From assembly GCA_017654855.1 (NCBI GenBank), contig CM030335.1, positions 3,472,001 to 3,536,000 on the forward strand: DNA of 64,000 bases, given 5' to 3'. Positions 40,596 to 51,921 of the stretch are shown here, piece by piece. This DNA comes from Podospora anserina. Lineage: Eukaryota. How positions within the stretch are numbered: position 1 is the first letter of the stretch; each line of letters begins with the position of its first letter. The translations under genes and the position numbers were made by a program. Below the pieces are notes generated by a model that had not been told where the DNA came from, made no database searches, and was given only the letters and a program-made list of their open reading frames with translations.

Positions 40596-42127
40596 TCACC
40601 CCCTCAAATCCCCCACCAACCTCTCCAGCACCGTATCAGTAAAAATCCACAAACTCGTACTCAAATGCACCCCCAAACTCGCCCCCGTATACCACGTCCC
40701 CCTCCTCCCCTGCAGCCCATTCAACCGTTGGATGAACCCGCCCTCCAGCTTCTCCTTCGTGACATACGCACTCACCAACCCATGCGGCTCAAACATGTGG
40801 AACGTCAACCTCTGCGCAGGACTCGTCTGGTTCACCACCCCGCCCTCCACCAGCTTGTCAAACGAGTCCTCAATCACCTTCTTGGCCTGGGCAGCAGTGA
40901 ACGTCTGGTCGCCCACAGCAATGAGCCGGAAGTAGGACGAGTCGGCGTAGTTCTCGAAGCGGGTGTTGTAGGGGTAATCGGGAATCGCCTCGGGCCAGTT
41001 GGCTGGCTGGGCCGAGGCGGGAATATTGACGAGGGATTTGTTGAGGGGTAAAGAAGGGTGAGAGACAACTCCGACGTAGCTGGCGCTGTAGTTAAACTCG
41101 CCGAGCGTGGACCTTTCCTCACGGTCGAGGTCAAGAGGCGAGGTGTTTGCCTCGCTGGGGATGGCTGTGTAGAGCAGTCTTTTGGCGACGATCCTCGTCT
41201 TGACACCAGTGGCAGAGTTTCTCACGATCAAAGTCACGCCCTTGCGGGAGGAGCGCTCCTCGGTGGATATCACCGTGGTGGATGTCAAGGCGTCAGCGCC
41301 GAGGGAGGTGAGGATACGGTCGTAGAGGTCTTGGTTCTTGCGGGAGACGGGTACGATGCTGGTTTCGATGCCCAACAGGACCCGGACGAGGTTGACGTTG
41401 AAGGAGCGCATGAACCAGACCGTCAAGTGACCCATCATGTCATGGATACCAAAGCCGGTCGTGGCGTGGAACATGGGTACAGCAGCCGTCAGGTTGTATT
41501 TGGCAACAAAGTCGCGGAATGGCAGCAGCAGATCGGCTGGGATGTCTTGTGGCAGGGGGAATGTCCACCATCCAGGCTCCAATACTGGGAGGAAGGACTC
41601 GGCGACTTCGAGATACCTCTGCAGCGCAGCGGTTCTATCAGCTGCAGACGGCGGGCTGTAATTGGTCAACTTCTCGCCGTTGGTGAAGTCGATAGACACT
41701 GTCTCGGCTGTCGATCGAACATTGGGCTGCATTTCGACTCCGAATCTTTCAAAGAAAGCTCGTGCTCCACCAATCTCGATCCAGTTTTGGACTCCGCAAT
41801 CAAAGCCACGCCCTGTTACAGGATCAATGAATGTGTTGACATGTCCTCCCTAAGGTATGGTAAACTTCTCGTCAGCGCCGTCAGTGAGTCGAGGACGATG
41901 AAACTTACAAGATTGGAGTTCTTCTCAATAACAACCACACTGACGTTGTAATCTTCCCTCAGCCTAACAGCTGAGTAAGAGCCTGAAGCACCACCCCCGA
42001 TGATAGCAACATCTTTGTAGATGGTCCGGATACGATCATTGCCCTTGCCCTTGCCTTTGCCTTTCCCATCGGCCAAAGTGAGCACGAAACCACTCAAGGC
42101 CACAGTAGCAAGAACCGTGCTCCGCAT
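40596..42127 (-). CDS. Secreted FAD-dependent oxidoreductase (flavin amine-oxidase-like)
   Basis: Signal peptide MRSTVLATVALSGFVLTLA, Rossmann motif DVAIIGGGASGSYSAVRL...VVVIEK, then after one intron GGHVNT, and C-terminal LQGRRGTWYTGA. Confidence 0.88.
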
Positions 42128-42763
42128 TTTGACGACGAGATGACAGGAAACAATAAAAAGTCCCAGTCCCAGTCGGAGATTCATCAAGTACCTATTTATC
42201 CTGCAGAAACATGGGACTCCCCGCAGCGGGAGAATCCCACCACCCGACCACGTAACTCTCCAATGCAAGGGCCATCTTACTTTTCTCGGGCACCTGTCGT
42301 GTAACCATAAAGTAGAGTGAGCTACCACACCTGCTGGACAGCTCTGTCAAATTTGCTGACCAACATGCGATGAGTTTGTTGGTTCTGCCTTGGTGTAAGG
42401 TACCAAGCGTGCGAATGAGGGTCGGCAATCCAGTGCCCTAATGTAAGCCAAGGCGGTAACGAGGCAGACGTGGCGTGCAATAATGCAGTGCAAGCAGATT
42501 GTTGTTTTGACTCCAAGCTAAAGAGGCGGCTTTTCCACAACCATCGACAATGAGAGTGGAAAAAGGATGATCGATTAGATTGTAGGGAAAACAATATCTC
42601 AACTACGCTAATCAGTACGTCTGCAACCTCAATTGGCAATCCCCTCATCAAACTCAAGAGAAACAAGGAAGGACAACCGTGGACCAAGAATCCTGGTCAC
42701 TGATTATGTCCTTTAGAGCCCTTGCAAAACTCGCCGTAACCGTCGCCTCTTCACAGTTTCCCT

Positions 42764-44260
42764 TCACATCATGGATTGTAGCCATCTCTCATGAGTCCTC
42801 TGGCCAACACTCTTAAGCCAGCCTGCTGTTTTTACGGCAGACAAAGCGGCCAAGGTGAGGTACTCCTCGCGGTCCGTCATCAGCTTTTCCAAAGCCTCCT
42901 CCCAAGGTCCAATATCTTGATCTGGAATGATGTAGTCCCCATTCTCATCTCGCTGATGACCGGTGACAGGGTTGATGGGAATGATGGGAGGGACGTTGAC
43001 CTTGGCCTCAGGGAGCCCGCCAGAATTGGAAGCAATGACAGGTATACCACGAAGCTGCGCCTCCGTGACAATAAGCCCCCAGGCTTCGTGCCAGATAGAT
43101 GGGGCGAGAAGAATCTTGATGCGGTCCCAAATGTCGTCGGTGTTCGGGGTAGTCGCCTCGATGCTGTCATCCATGGGTTAGTGTCATGCACTCCACCGCA
43201 CAGTAGCTAAAGAAAAAACACACCGGATATTGGGATAAGCCTTTATTCTCTCAATGTGTCGAGGTTTGGACCCCCAGCTAGTCCATGTGACAAACTTCAT
43301 GTGTGGGAACTTGGCAGCTAGGCCAAGCACAATATCCAAGCCTTTGATGGGGGCCGGGTTGACCATACCAATCTCCTCCTTGTCGACATTGTTTCGAATA
43401 GCCGGCATCCTACCAGTGTCAACATCGAGAAAAGTCCAAGGTGTGTGCGCCAGAAACTTGGTCTGAAGCCTGCCATGCTCCCATGCGTAACGTTGAATGG
43501 CCTTGGACACGGACCAGACCCCGTCCAACTTGCGCAGCATTTCATTTTCCACCTTGGCGGAGATACAGTGGCCCTCTACACCTGCACAGTAGGGACCAAA
43601 AGGAACTTGTTCCGCCGAGTGCACAATACACACCCGTTTGAACGTCTCCCGAAGAGCATGACCAGCTGTGAGCTTCATGGTGAGGGAATCGTTGAAAAGA
43701 ACGTGGGTAGGTCTGAAGTCGGTTATAGCTCTGGAGTATACTCCAGTAAGGCCCTTGATGCGGCTGCTGAGATCATCGTTCTACAGTTGAGCACAAAGGG
43801 CAGTTAGCTTCAGGGTAGCAACAAGAGACAGTGAGAGGAGCCCTACTTCCAAATACGCCCGCGATTCCACCTAGAACTCGCCGGCTGGATAGGCAGCTTT
43901 GAACTCATGACGCGCAATGGTGGTGTTGAGTATCCCCCACTCGTCGGTAAACTCGTTGATATGGAGCTTGTGCTCCTGGTTCTTGCCATCGGTGACAATG
44001 ACAGGTTCCAAGCCTATCACGCCAGGATAGACTCCCTTGGCCTTGGCTCTCCTAGCATATTTATCGAGCTCCTCGGGGAAGGCATAGCAGACCTGGGCAG
44101 TGGCATGGCCCAGCCTGCTCAGGTTGCGTAGGAGACAGACATTCGCCTTGTAGCCGCCCGAAGAAGGAGTCAGGCCATGAGCCGTCTGGACAAGCAGCAA
44201 GCGCATTCTCGGACCGCCCCCGGGGGTATATCCTTCAAGTTGAAGCTGAGGATAATGCAT
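42764..44260 (-). CDS. Glycosyltransferase family 4 (GT-B) gene interrupted by a single in-frame TAG (43871-43873); 456 aa if read through
   Basis: MRLLLVQTAHGL..SSGGYKAN, PTHVLFND, IVHSAEQVPFGP, GMVNP..IKG and LLAPSIWHEAWGLIVTEA (E-x7-E) motifs. Canonical introns 43781-43846 and 43164-43223; exons of 414+557+400 nt stay in frame. Confidence 0.85.
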
Positions 44261-45552
44261 CTGGGCTGATGGGTGTCGTTGAGAATGCGTGGTATAGAAG
44301 GTATAAGACGAAACTGCCGCAAAGCGATGAGGTCGAAGACAGGGTTGTCGATCGAGAGAAGAGTTGATATCCAATGCTGAAATAGGTCAAAGACGGTCTT
44401 TTATATAGGAAAAGAGAAGAGGCGGGCTACATGACGTTCTGGTCACCGGTTGAGCGAGTTATTTTCCAAGAACTCGAATCCAGATGCTGGTGACCAGAAG
44501 GGAGCAAGACAGGGCTGCACGAGATCGTCGTCCAATGTCCTCGTTTGTCCGTTTTACGTGGAGTTTGATTTCGTGACACTTTTGGTAAATTGAATAACGA
44601 TAACTAGTGCCAAGAAAAGCGCGCAAAAGGAAATTGAAGGACGATACCGTGATGCCGTCGTCAAAGCCGTCGGGGATTTGGTTGGGTGGTGGGTTGTATT
44701 TGGGTCAGGTGGGCAAGAAACTGATGGGGTCTGCAAACAGACAGCTTGACCCTCTGCCTTCCCCCTGTGCAAGAGGAAGGAACGAATGATGACCTCTCCG
44801 GGGACTCGGTCAGTGGAAACCGGAAATCATAAAGTTCCTGCTCCGATTCGCAAGCCGCCAGATAAGCCGTACCTTCCTCTGATTCAAGGTAGATCACGAG
44901 CCCATGTGAAACATGCGAGTATTTTATTTAAACACCACATAATGTAGAGATACCCTTTAATACGCCCAATGGTGTTTCATTTGAACCCGGGTTTCTCTCA
45001 AGGACGCAACAGACCCCACCGTAGATTTGGTAGAGTGCCACCTGCCATCCACTATGCAAACAAACTGGGCACGACATAATTCATCTCAAATACCTATTAT
45101 CGTCCATGCTTTTCAATGGCATTTTGGCTCATCGGCCTTCATGAGGGCAGTTGAAACTGACAATCACTGCTGCAACAACACCGGAGAAACATTCACACCC
45201 GAAACTATTGGAGGGCCTGGCAGGTTCAGGGGCATGAACCTCTCGTATTAATGACGAACACCACCCTCGGACCCTCCCGCCGTCAATAGCCAGTGCACAC
45301 CAACACCCATGACGTTGATTCTGTGGCTTGTGACCCTTCTCTGTGTGTTTTGTCCAACACGGACACATCTGTGCGCCCACCCATCCCCGGATCATGATGA
45401 CATACCGGCCTCTGCAAACAAAACCACTGCCCTTTCCGCTCTTCCGCTCTCAACCTCTCATTTCCTTGCAACCTTACCTTACACTTTTGGTTTTTGACAA
45501 CTTTCCCATGTCCTATACAGCATCAGCCAAGCAAATCGGCGACAAAGTAAAC

Positions 45553-47557: not shown

Positions 47558-49963
47558 TCAATCCTCATCGTCATCACCATCCCGAATGTAGCACCTACCT
47601 ACACACTGGACAGCCAGCTTCGGTGCTCGATCATAGTACATGCCGTCCCTGGAGAAAAGCTGCGCCCTTATCGCACTCGTCATGTTGTTGCGTGCAAGGT
47701 TGCGCAGCACCTGATCCGCATATTCATCGACGTTGGTCCTGATGAGCTCCGCCCAACCATTCAAATCTGGCGAGTTCCTACTAAAGGGGTTGAGCAACGA
47801 GAGCGTCTCATGTTCATAGAATATATTGGCAGCCCTAAGGTTGGCAATGTACGCGCTGTTCGATGGTGCATGTCGTGGCAGGGTCAAAAGCAGTGGAACC
47901 TGGGGCGTACAATACTCTTCATCACCACCATCGGCCGCAGCAGCAAAGCGCCTCAACTCGTTGACTCGTCTCGTCAGGCTGCTACCCCGTCGCGGATTCT
48001 GGCGGGAAGCGCGCCAATGTCCACTGCCGGACGAAGAAAGCCCGAGACATCTGCAAAAGAACATCTTGGCCCGTAGAGATTCGTATCCAGGAGGCCCAAA
48101 CATGTCCCTCCGGCGAGCGCCTCGTTCTAGCAGAAGCCTTACCAGCCCGATATTTGCATTCTTGACAGCTAGTGCAATAGGTGCCCAGCCACCGATGGTC
48201 TGGGCGTGGATATCCGCACCGTTGTCGAGAAGAAGGCGTGCTGCCCTGACTTGCTCGTCGAGCTGGGTGGACAGACCAAAGAAACAGGCAAAGTGAAGCG
48301 GGGTCCAACCTACCACGTCACGGGCGTCGATTGCCAGGCCAGAAATCTCTGGACCGCCGAGAAACTCCACCAAAGGACGGACCCTGTCCCCCGAGGCAAA
48401 CATGGACGCGAAGTGAAGTGGTGTCATGCCTTCCGAGTCTCTTCTGTCCATGTCTGCTCCCATTGCAAGCAGAGAAGTGACGAGGGTGGAAGAACCAAGG
48501 AAGCCAAACGGCAGACAGACCCAGCGGAGCGCGGTCAAATCACTGGTCCACCAGGTCGAATTGTAGTTGTTGGATAAGTCTCGGGTGTCAACGGCGGCGG
48601 AGGATCTGCCGAACAGAGTCTCGCCGTCCGTCTCGCATGCTTCGCCCATGCGTCTTAGCAGGCCAGAGGTGATTTGAAGGAAGTCTGTAGCCGTGTGACC
48701 AAGCCCGTAGACAGTGGAGCAGTGTGTTATCCAGCGGTCGGTCAACTGAGTAACAGCCAGAAAAGGAGAAATCTCGCGTTGGGCGAAACTCACCATATCT
48801 AAGCCATGCGGCTGGGACAAGCTTAGGGCGAATATCCGGAAGACCTCGGGGGTTCTATTCATGTTATACCATGGGCACTCCTGATCGCTCGCGAGCATAG
48901 CAACTATACGTTGAGCATCACGACCAGCCCCATACTGCAACAGCAACCGCACCTTTTCTTCGTCAAAAGACCAAGTGTCCCCGCCACTGGACGCTAGATA
49001 TGCCATCAGGGGAGTAAGTTCACCATGCAGCCCGCTCGGATATGCATCCCTTGTTATGCCGGTCGTGATCACCGGGGCGGATACATCAGGGCGCGAGTTC
49101 AAGTGGAAAATCCTCTGGCACGTACCGTACTGTCCTTTGAGTAGCGGATCAGCCCCGTGTTGCAGGAGGAGTTGGACTGTTTCTGCCGGTACGGACGACT
49201 GCATTGCAAGTCCCAAAGGGAGCTCGTGCCGTGCGTTGTACGGGTACCGGCCATAAAAGCGCCAGGACCAGCCAGTGTACAGATTGGGGTCGGCGCCGGC
49301 CTCCAAAAGGGCCTGAACAATACGGGGGTTTCCGCGCTGAAGGCTGGGTGTGTCATCCATGGTGCGGTGGAGAGGGTATGAAGCTTTCAGTCGGTAGGCG
49401 TAGCAGTTGACCGAATAGCTGTCAGGAGAGTTGACGTCGGCGCCTCTCTGGCAAAGTGATCGCACCAGTAAGGCGTCGTCTATGCAGATGGCGAGCTTTA
49501 GTGGGGTGTTGAACATGCACTCGTGAAAATCGGGATCGCGGATGACCCAGGTACAGTCTACCGCGGTGCCGTGGTCGAATCGGTGGTTGACCGACGCGCC
49601 ATGGGAAAGGGCCCGGTCGAGCGTTTCTAGGAAGCTGAAGGTGCAGGCCCATCGGAGGGAGAGGCAGTCGAACTCGGCAACGTCGCGGGAGTACAAGGCG
49701 GGAATGGCAAGGTCGGCCAAGTAGCGGCAAGTGAGGGCGAGGTGGAAGAGGTCGGCCTGGTACAGATAGCAGAATATGAGGAGGTGCAGTTCGTGGGGGA
49801 GGCGGTTGAGCATGGACTTTGCCGGAGGCCAATGCGGGGGAGGCAAGTCGTAAGGTTGGGCACCGTTGCACCATCGATCGTACAATGTTGTGTATTCCTG
49901 CTTTCTAAGCTCGAGATACTCGGCAAGCATCGGGTTGGGACGGCCCTCGCGGAAGACTCTCAT
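47558..49963 (-). CDS. F-box plus ankyrin-repeat protein
   Basis: F-box-like LNRLPHELHLLIFCYL...DLFHLALTCR followed by ankyrin repeats (NTPLKLAI, GMTPLHFAS, GWTPLHFAC, GWAPIALAV); intronless ORF with uncertain start. Confidence 0.88.
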   Translation of the reverse strand: MRVFREGRPNPMLAEYLELRKQEYTTLYDRWCNGAQPYDLPPPHWPPAKSMLNRLPHELHLLIFCYLYQADLFHLALTCRYLADLAIPALYSRDVAEFDCLSLRWACTFSFLETLDRALSHGASVNHRFDHGTAVDCTWVIRDPDFHECMFNTPLKLAICIDDALLVRSLCQRGADVNSPDSYSVNCYAYRLKASYPLHRTMDDTPSLQRGNPRIVQALLEAGADPNLYTGWSWRFYGRYPYNARHELPLGLAMQSSVPAETVQLLLQHGADPLLKGQYGTCQRIFHLNSRPDVSAPVITTGITRDAYPSGLHGELTPLMAYLASSGGDTWSFDEEKVRLLLQYGAGRDAQRIVAMLASDQECPWYNMNRTPEVFRIFALSLSQPHGLDMVSFAQREISPFLAVTQLTDRWITHCSTVYGLGHTATDFLQITSGLLRRMGEACETDGETLFGRSSAAVDTRDLSNNYNSTWWTSDLTALRWVCLPFGFLGSSTLVTSLLAMGADMDRRDSEGMTPLHFASMFASGDRVRPLVEFLGGPEISGLAIDARDVVGWTPLHFACFFGLSTQLDEQVRAARLLLDNGADIHAQTIGGWAPIALAVKNANIGLVRLLLERGARRRDMFGPPGYESLRAKMFFCRCLGLSSSGSGHWRASRQNPRRGSSLTRRVNELRRFAAAADGGDEEYCTPQVPLLLTLPRHAPSNSAYIANLRAANIFYEHETLSLLNPFSRNSPDLNGWAELIRTNVDEYADQVLRNLARNNMTSAIRAQLFSRDGMYYDRAPKLAVQCVGRCYIRDGDDDED

Positions 49964-50172
49964 GGTCGCAGTCTCGGAAAAGGAGGAGAAGGTGCCAGGT
50001 CTGAGGTTGTGTACCTGTAGAGGGGCCGTTGCCTTTTGAACCGAAGCTGTCACGCTGTGCAACCAAGTCGCCAAGACAGAGGATCGCCAAGAATGAGGAC
50101 GGATGGGCGTCCTCACAGCGGGACCATTGGGTGGGTATCATTGATTCTTAGACATTCTACGTACCCATGGCC

Positions 50173-51066
50173 TTACTTTTGCCGTATGTTTTTAGGCTTG
50201 CGCTTTTTGAAAACAACCGCTGCAACAGCCGGCTCTTCGTTGCCGAGCTCCTGTTTGACCATGGCTGGAGGCGCCTCATCTTGGACAGCTTGGATGGCTT
50301 CCAGAGCAGGCCCGTCCTGGCTTTCCTCCTTCTTAACGACTGGAGCCTCGGGCACACCCTCCTCCCCCTTGACTTCGCCCTTAACCTCGGTGTCCTTCTC
50401 TTTCTTGGTCTTGACAATCGTCCCACTCAGCAGCTCCTCCAACTCTTTATCCTCTTCTTCTGGCATGCTTTTCGATCCAACCCCCCACCTCTTCCGTTTC
50501 TTGAACAGCCCATTCAGAGCCTCCTCTTGTTCCTTTTCTTCTTCTGTCCTTTCTCTTTCCCTCTTGACTCCCACCGCTCTGCCCTCATCTTTGGTATCAT
50601 CAGCAGTCTTATTGCCAGAATCTCCATCGTCAACGACCCTCGTAGAAGTGACGCTCCACTCCCCCACCATAGCCATATCCTTCCTCAGTTCGGTCGGGAT
50701 ATTCACCCCCAACTCGGCCAGCTGCTCCAGTTGTCTCTGTCGTTCAGCCTGTGATAGCTGCCCTGTTGGCGCTGCTGGTGGTGGCGCGCTGCTAGTGCTG
50801 CTGCCATGTTTCTTCGCCCCGGCGCCTCCACTCCCACTCCCTGACGCGGAAACAACTCCATTCAGCCTTTCCACCTCCCTCTTGGCCCTGTCCTTCTCTC
50901 GTTGTTCTTGCTCGGCGGATCTGTGGAGGTCGCGAAGGGAGCGCTTGATGGCGCCCTGATGTTTGCCCGTAGACTCGTGGTTGGCGCGCTCGAGCTTGGT
51001 GTCGCGGACGTAGACGGAGCAGTGTTTGCACCAGTACTTGGGGGTTGATTTCCAGTATTCCGACAT
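50173..51066 (-). CDS. U1-type/matrin zinc-finger protein (WBP4/FBP21-like splicing-associated)
   Basis: MSEYWKSTPKYWCKHCSVYVRDTKLERANHESTGKHQGAIKRSLR and C-terminal VFKKRK. Confidence 0.9.
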   Translation of the reverse strand: MSEYWKSTPKYWCKHCSVYVRDTKLERANHESTGKHQGAIKRSLRDLHRSAEQEQREKDRAKREVERLNGVVSASGSGSGGAGAKKHGSSTSSAPPPAAPTGQLSQAERQRQLEQLAELGVNIPTELRKDMAMVGEWSVTSTRVVDDGDSGNKTADDTKDEGRAVGVKRERERTEEEKEQEEALNGLFKKRKRWGVGSKSMPEEEDKELEELLSGTIVKTKKEKDTEVKGEVKGEEGVPEAPVVKKEESQDGPALEAIQAVQDEAPPAMVKQELGNEEPAVAAVVFKKRKPKNIRQK

Positions 51067-51921
51067 TGTGGGCGGTGTGTAGGCGTCAGATGTGTTGATG
51101 AGGATGGTCGTCGCAGAATGTTTGATGATGGCTGACAGCCAAGCAAATGGATAATGGATGCGGCAGGCCGGAAAAGTCCCGGAGTATGGGAGTCTTGGCA
51201 GCGAGCAAACAGTGCACGAACCATATGGCAGCCCCACCACACCACTGCAGGATCCCGTATGATTACCCAACACGACAGACGCCATCATCATCGCGACATG
51301 TCCGCGTCGACTTCATTCCACACCTCAGCTCTCATCGGTTTCATGTTTGACTCATCACTCAGACCGCCGATGGTGATGTCCTCGGAGTGGTGGGGTGAGA
51401 TCATGTCATGCCCTACCACACGACAGTGCGCCCAGAGTTATCGAGATATCTTTCTCCCATTGTATAAAGCTTGCCCTCCTCTCTCGAGAGCCCATCTACT
51501 TACAAAAAAGACGAAGCGTCGAAAAAGAAGATCGCCGCAGTAATAGAGAGTTATGTAATTATCACCTCCCCCTGATTACGTCCCATGTATCTTGTCCCCC
51601 CATGTCATCATGAACTGCAAAAGAAATCCCGAGAACAAAGCTGGAAAGAAGAAAACGACCTCAAATTGCCACCCACCTCAAAAGTAAACACAAGTGAAAT
51701 CTTCGTGTTAGCTTGCCTCCCCTAGCTTTCATCATTATCGTGCCCATGATTCCCCTTTCCCCCAGATCCCCCCGCTTTTTGATGACCCATTAAAAGGCGA
51801 GAAAACAACGCGCCTTGCCCGAAGAAAAGAAAAAGAATTAACAATGTAAAGGCGGTCAGGGTTCGTGAAAAAGATGGTCTGGTAGAGATGAGTTGCCGGT
51901 TAGGCTGGCGGTGGAAGGCGG

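Follow-up and report, generated by a model that had tools for sequence, protein, structure and literature searches.

How can a gene whose first exon carries an in-frame stop codon encode a complete enzyme? The question is raised by a locus of Podospora anserina lying within a stretch of 64,000 nucleotides (hereafter the window), for which an earlier note had proposed that a premature UAG, placed in a hairpin loop of an otherwise intact glycosyltransferase gene, is corrected to a Trp codon in the mRNA by A-to-I editing. Restorative editing of premature stop codons is established in Fusarium and Neurospora. The gene is built as follows.

42764 to 44260, minus strand: GT4 glycosyltransferase gene, Pa_4_5400-like, from ATG to TGA, with three exons and 456 codons if the TAG is taken as Trp.
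43847 to 44260, minus strand: exon 1, the exon-1/2 joint lying at 43847 in RNA-derived contigs.
43871 to 43873, minus strand: in-frame TAG, codon 130 of 456, the proposed edited A being position 43872 (T-to-C on the plus strand).
43781 to 43846, minus strand: intron 1, 66 nt, phase 0, GTAGGG...CTAAC...TAG, its joint present in contigs of runs X15 and X16.
43224 to 43780, minus strand: exon 2, from RNA-derived contigs and splicing of the window's exons.
43164 to 43223, minus strand: intron 2, 60 nt, its joint present in the X15 contig.
42764 to 43163, minus strand: exon 3, encoding the catalytic C-terminal domain and ending in the TGA stop, from an RNA-derived contig and a Pfam match.

On the minus strand the end of exon 1 reads exactly as described beforehand, AAYPAGEF followed by TAG, VESRAYLE and a GT donor. 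Counted from the ATG at 44260 (an alternative in-frame Met, opening MRLLLV, is found at 44206) the stop is codon 130, in agreement with the stated truncation from 456 to 129 residues, by which 327 of the 456 residues are deleted, the whole donor-binding/catalytic domain included. The remaining frame is intact as had been claimed, with zero further internal stops in the spliced coding sequence, and the phase-0 intron placed after exon 1 is spliced out precisely in the RNA-derived contigs of two runs, with GT and AG at its ends. The note had named a sequencing error as one way in which its proposal might fail; this is not borne out, a DNA contig of run X1 (18,290 nt) carrying the same TAG and showing 0 differences from the window over 1701 nt (42700-44400). 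Consequently, the TAG is no one-off assembly error, although X1 may come from the same strain. All sampled words of the locus are contained in 14 of the 24 listed sequencing runs, a list in which 0 runs are recorded as RNA and 6 are presumed to be RNA.

The neighbours of the gene, all on the minus strand, are an NAD/FAD-binding oxidoreductase-like gene (40596-42346), a gene for an F-box plus ankyrin-repeat protein (47558-50137) and one for a U1-type zinc-finger protein (50173-51312), and nothing in the neighbouring genes of the window points to a gene cluster with the transferase.

The product of the full frame matches Pfam PF00534 (Glycos_transf_1, 31.8 bits for a cut-off of 26.4) and PF13692 (Glyco_trans_1_4, 33.5 bits for a cut-off of 27), the NCBIfam matches being far below their cut-offs and no close characterised relative having been found. 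The catalytic motif, said in the earlier note to be intact, is indeed so.

43061 to 43087, minus strand: E-x7-E motif, E350 to E358, both glutamates invariant among the 52 aligned relatives.

In the AlphaFold model, computed from 52 sequences (mean pLDDT 93.7, pTM 0.91), the protein is predicted to adopt a two-domain GT-B fold in which codon 130 sits in helix 126-139 of the N-terminal domain, and the best PDB matches returned by Foldseek are retaining transferases of GT4/GT5 (E 1e-16 to 1e-12, TM 0.5-0.75). Retaining GT-B enzymes of GT4 include MshA and BshA, and glycogen and starch synthases are related to them. The Podospora protein resembles these enzymes in its Pfam GT1-group domain, its E-x7-E motif and its predicted two-Rossmann fold, but differs from the solved GT4/GT5 chains that it matches in sharing only 10-16% identity with them. 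As judged from sequence and model, the product is a putative GT4 glycosyltransferase of retaining GT-B type. Its bacterial relatives P0069, P0079, P0082 and P0066 (about 28-30% identity) occur as fusions with thioesterase, condensation or sulfotransferase-type domains, and the UniRef name of the Neurospora crassa orthologue is 'thioesterase'; these fusions and this name hint that the gene originated in the glycosylation of natural products or glycolipids rather than in cell-wall synthesis.

The sequences that bear most directly on the fate of the stop are derived from RNA. A search with exon 1 read through the stop retrieved P0001, a Logan ORF of 456 residues on a 1957-nt contig, which is identical to the product of the window's spliced coding sequence at 455 of 456 residues, the sole difference being W in place of the stop at codon 130. 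Since this ORF lacks introns and spans both intron positions, its contig derives from RNA. A second intron-less Logan ORF, P0101, present on three contigs, likewise has W at codon 130 and differs further from the window by I190V and K441E. Both ORFs thus correspond to the spliced window protein with Trp at the stop, which is what the core claim of a UAG corrected in the mRNA predicts; support for a G at 43872 lies here in the W of proteins predicted from Logan contigs, as distinct from read nucleotides. The two further differences of P0101 correspond to two more candidate sites.

43627, minus strand: second candidate edited A, ATT to GTT, I190V, from P0101 compared with the window, preceded by T.
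42814, minus strand: third candidate edited A, AAG to GAG, K441E, from P0101 compared with the window, preceded by T.

All three differences of P0101 (3/3) require an A-to-G change at an A following a T, the background in the coding sequence being 48 such positions among 321 A's. In local minimum free energy (MFE) folds, 43627 is third in a predicted hairpin loop of 7 nt and 42814 third in one of 8 nt, with U before each. At the I190V position a DNA-derived model of Triangularia setosa has V.

Contigs of four runs (X1, X15, X16 and X17) were compared with positions 42700-44400. Both introns are absent from the 1182-nt X15 contig, which has 1 difference somewhere in the exon-1 piece 43847-44083, and intron 1 is absent from the 413-nt X16 contig, which has 0 differences; X17 gave an unspliced piece, also with 0 differences. 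The spliced X16 contig keeps the TAG, and therefore unedited spliced mRNA exists, an observation that fits a switch but is no proof of one.

The RNA contigs with Trp could also stem from a strain or sister species having TGG in its DNA, so that no editing would be needed. P0001 and P0101 are not tied to a TAG-bearing strain, DNA and RNA are not from one known strain, and the RNA basis consists of contigs instead of reads, all of which leaves room for such a polymorphism. It is unlikely, though, given that P0001 matches the window at every residue other than codon 130, that the two extra differences of P0101 are A-to-G after T as well and are predicted to lie in hairpin loops, that the 90% cluster contains no DNA-derived ORF with W (its genomic members end at ...GEF or are models in which the codon is bypassed), and that the TAG recurs in several members of the P. 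anserina species complex and also in 9 relatives that have diverged from it.

The deposited gene models treat the stop in another manner. Members of the 90% cluster include PODANS_4_5400 of Podospora anserina S mat+, named 'Putative Glycosyltransferase Family 4' and identical in P. comata, together with models of P. pseudocomata, P. bellae-mahoneyi and Cercophora samala, a membership that assigns the window to the P. anserina species complex. The P. anserina/P. comata model, of 432 residues, bypasses the stop through an intron of its own.

43767 to 43904, minus strand: 138-nt 'intron' of the deposited 432-aa model, removing the TAG and 24 codons, from P0099 mapped by eye.

For P. pseudocomata and P. 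bellae-mahoneyi two models have been deposited in place of one, the first of 111/113 residues ending at ...GEF and the second of 284 residues starting in exon 2, and an ORF of 111 residues terminating at ...GEF is recorded on 15 contigs. Among the 52 aligned family proteins, 23 have a gap at codon 130, nearly all of them annotated models (P0099, P0002, P0098, P0105, P0005 and others), and 6 of these 23 resume directly after the codon-130 column, as expected if the predictor took the AG of the TAG itself as acceptor.

Such models would be correct if the stop were spliced out of the mRNA, either with the intron 43904-43767 or, as in Chaetomiaceae models, by using the AG of the TAG as acceptor, and the gapped proteins, with the 6 that resume just after the site, can be read in that sense. 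The RNA points the other way: the X15 and X16 contigs retain 43847-43904 and use the 66-nt intron, the joint of the 138-nt intron occurs in none of the RNA contigs compared, and use of the TAG as a 3' splice acceptor, which the earlier note had held to be fatal to its proposal, is not seen in those contigs. The gapped models, furthermore, disagree among themselves on donor and acceptor, and the 24 residues that would be skipped are conserved in relatives without the stop and include the confidently predicted helix 126-139. Removal of the stop by splicing is accordingly very unlikely as the general explanation, while a minor isoform may use the 138-nt intron. The gap in the 23 of 52 proteins is explained by the conserved TAG itself. 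Annotation pipelines have hidden the stop behind invented introns and split genes in many species, and similar recoding sites are therefore probably under-counted.

Conservation of the stop was followed in the protein alignment and in DNA. In the codon-130 column of the 52 fungal relatives, W occurs in 6 rows (the two Logan ORFs, Neurospora intermedia, Apodospora peruviana, Lasiosphaeria ovina and Podospora didyma), F in 5, other residues in 18 and a gap in 23, the gap rows being models from Podosporaceae and Chaetomiaceae. In the Neurospora cluster, an ORF from genomic DNA has W at this position and continues into the intron, which means that Trp is DNA-encoded there. Relatives were collected as DNA in a single metagenome scan with the N-terminal alignment, which yielded 33 loci, 30 of them spanning codon 130. 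The identical codon is TAG in 9 of these 30 loci (L004-L009, L019-L021), in the context AYPVREF, TAG and (E/D)D(T/I)R(A/D)YLE followed by a GT donor, and the other 21 have TTC (10), ACT (4), AGT/AGC (3), TTG, CTG (L011), CAC or GCC. The comparison of orthologues recommended in the note thus gave neither CAG nor a strain-specific nonsense codon, orthologues having the TAG at the same codon or else Trp and hydrophobic residues.

A quick IQ-TREE phylogeny of 68 rows, made of 26 loci and 42 named or Logan proteins (L011, L019, L023, L024, L030, L032 and L033 were left out as cut or irregular), places the window and 8 TAG loci inside one clade of 28 rows (SH-aLRT 93), which comprises a Chaetomiaceae group (21 rows, 97) plus a Podospora/Triangularia/Cercophora group. 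The named models in this clade skip codon 130, except those of Podospora fimiseda and of a Cladorrhinum, which have Leu. Outside the clade the residue is W, F, I or another, with W in Neurospora, Sordaria, Apodospora, L. ovina and P. didyma. From these sequences, the simplest history would be a single origin of the TAG before the split of Podosporaceae and Chaetomiaceae and its retention since. The residue that preceded it may have been W or F, the deeper branching being ambiguous; the TAG probably derives from TGG by a G-to-A change, a polarity that stays inferential because the deeper branches are poorly settled and F is common too. For named Chaetomiaceae species the presence of the TAG is deduced from the gaps in their gene models. 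A search among short proteins for truncated N-terminal ORFs of other species gave 1 match, P0103, and the clusters of 10 relatives held no N-terminal fragments from Chaetomiaceae.

Two side observations were made in the same material. A second Chaetomiaceae paralogue clade (L022, L024-L030; P0030, P0033, P0034, P0038) has T, S, A or V at codon 130 and no stop, and is missing the hairpin described below (1-2 of 7 pairs). Locus L011:58-378, with Leu at codon 130, has another in-frame TAG earlier in exon 1 (YADS, TAG, EVGE) and a 13-residue gap; this earlier TAG could be another correctable stop or the mark of a real pseudogene.

The TAG might also be a plain nonsense mutation in a decaying pseudogene whose downstream part is no longer translated, as the extent of the predicted truncation, with the catalytic domain lost, would allow. 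What is found downstream contradicts this. The 9 TAG loci have one stop each in exon 1 and 0 in exons 2-3 (8 loci complete, L019 ending with its contig), so that no second lesion exists in the window or in these relatives, and Nei-Gojobori dN/dS over exons 2 and 3 is 0.10-0.42 in 28 of 28 pairs of the 8 complete loci, at dS of 0.15-1.97 (between the window and the metagenome TAG loci dS is saturated). The purifying selection that the note had proposed to look for downstream of the stop is thus observed. The stop is itself constrained, T31, A32 and G33 of the alignment being invariant in the 10 TAG sequences while third positions of the flanking codons vary. Decay of the gene is therefore extremely unlikely.

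Readthrough of the UAG, or translation from a downstream start such as the Met of the 284-residue form in exon 2, could in principle yield a functional product from an unedited message, and it is true that unedited spliced mRNA exists and that the 284-residue exon-2 model has been deposited for two species. Exon 1 upstream of the stop is, however, also under constraint (dN/dS 0.07-0.39 in 28 pairs), the 284-residue form would, as modelled, be without most of the N-terminal Rossmann domain, and both the W-encoding transcripts and the conserved hairpin are left unexplained. There is accordingly only a slim chance that either process accounts for the locus, and correction of the UAG in the mRNA is the reading with which the hairpin is considered below.

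43857 to 43885, minus strand: hairpin with the UAG in its loop, conserved core 43860-43882 (alignment columns 22-44).

The hairpin drawn in the earlier note holds as far as the loop position of the A is concerned, but its 6-nt loop does not, the MFE structure of the window having a loop of 4 nt (AGGU). The 49-nt stretch of the window has an MFE of -17.3 kcal/mol and leaves the A unpaired; taken alone it is not exceptional (z = -1.19, 30 of 200 shuffles folding equally well), and the hairpin exceeds chance only because it is conserved in relatives. The A is unpaired in the MFE structure of 10 of 10 TAG sequences. In their RNAalifold consensus a helix of four pairs is separated by a 1x1 internal loop from three further pairs, which close a 7-nt loop, C-U-A-G-G-N-G, with the A in third place; 96.8% of the cells of this consensus are paired, a share that drops to 38-67% if the 3' partners are shifted. 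The covariation signal is weak and not significant, with 1 compensatory pair (in the window), a number reached by 61 of 500 shuffles. Of the 7 pairs, 5-7 are formed in TAG sequences (mean 6.8, 9 distinct) versus 1-5 in non-TAG relatives (mean 2.6, 13 distinct), a difference for which the Mann-Whitney p of 3.7e-5 overstates independence, the TAG rows being one clade. The U at -1 of the proposed edited A is given by the TAG codon itself.

In fungi, A-to-I mRNA editing favours adenosines that follow a U and lie in hairpin loops, and consequently UAG is frequently edited (PMC11156358). It is carried out by Tad2/Tad3, the deaminase of A34 in tRNA, with stage-specific isoforms and the cofactors Ame1 and Fip5, and UAG-to-UGG correction is required by PUK1 and 70 other genes of F. 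graminearum (PMC11156358). Qi et al. 2024 describe 71 such pseudogenes, the stops of which are conserved more than comparable edited sites (PMC10776026). The Podospora site is like these F. graminearum pseudogenes with premature stop codons in having a UAG, probably corrected to UGG in the mRNA, in an intact conserved gene, with U at -1 and the stop retained across species, and is unlike them in being another gene, in the order Sordariales, with a stop common to two families; a glycosyltransferase has 0 mentions in the main text of PMC10776026. It also shares with Tad2/Tad3 editing (PMC11156358) the U at -1 and the hairpin-loop position. On our own reading, and in our own numbering, the U-A at loop positions 2-3 may be equivalent to U33-A34 of the tRNA anticodon loop, PMC11156358 itself stating, in the part available, only a likeness to A34 editing.

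Taken together, the locus is very probably a functional GT4 gene in which a DNA-encoded UAG at codon 130 is corrected by A-to-I mRNA editing of the Tad2/Tad3 type, and the sequence features of premature-stop-correcting editing, namely an in-frame UAG in an intact frame, U at -1, a hairpin-loop position and a conserved stop with purifying selection downstream, are present at the site. The A at 43872 of the mRNA would be deaminated to inosine and the codon read as UGG (Trp), the edited mRNA giving the 456-residue enzyme and the unedited mRNA a 129-residue N-terminal stump without the catalytic domain. [quoted passage not shown] In Podospora the ADAT genes are differentially expressed during the sexual cycle (bioRxiv 10.1101/2024.12.09.627484). 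Editing of this site may belong to the sexual stage; the further ideas of the earlier note, that the full-length protein would be confined to fruiting bodies and might serve ascus or ascospore glycans, stand as conjecture. CHE1 of F. graminearum, in which a conserved premature stop is corrected by A-to-I editing (PMC11169179), is similar in the conservation of its stop but different in being edited in vegetative hyphae under oxidative stress, and sexual-stage timing is hence not to be simply assumed for the Podospora site. In the literature searched, no editing site is described for Podospora, and the identifiers of this gene occur in 0 papers.

The adaptive value of restorative editing is still argued (PMC13431901, PMC13684035). 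To this question the site adds a case of long retention, the same TAG, hairpin and constrained gene being found in the window and in nine relatives that have diverged from it, where sister lineages have Trp encoded directly, and it offers a deeply conserved test case for restorative editing that is open to TGG and TAA allele swaps in a model fungus that is not a pathogen. It can be suggested, as a tentative but serious possibility, that the stop is an obligatory developmental gate which predates the family split and is maintained by selection, that the anticodon-loop mimic recruits the tRNA deaminase, and that the stop is favoured over TGG because the enzyme would be costly in vegetative hyphae and would be present only when editing is on. 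If this is true, few recoding stops in fungi would be as deeply conserved as this TAG, and P. anserina would be a tractable organism in which to address the disputed adaptiveness of restorative editing.
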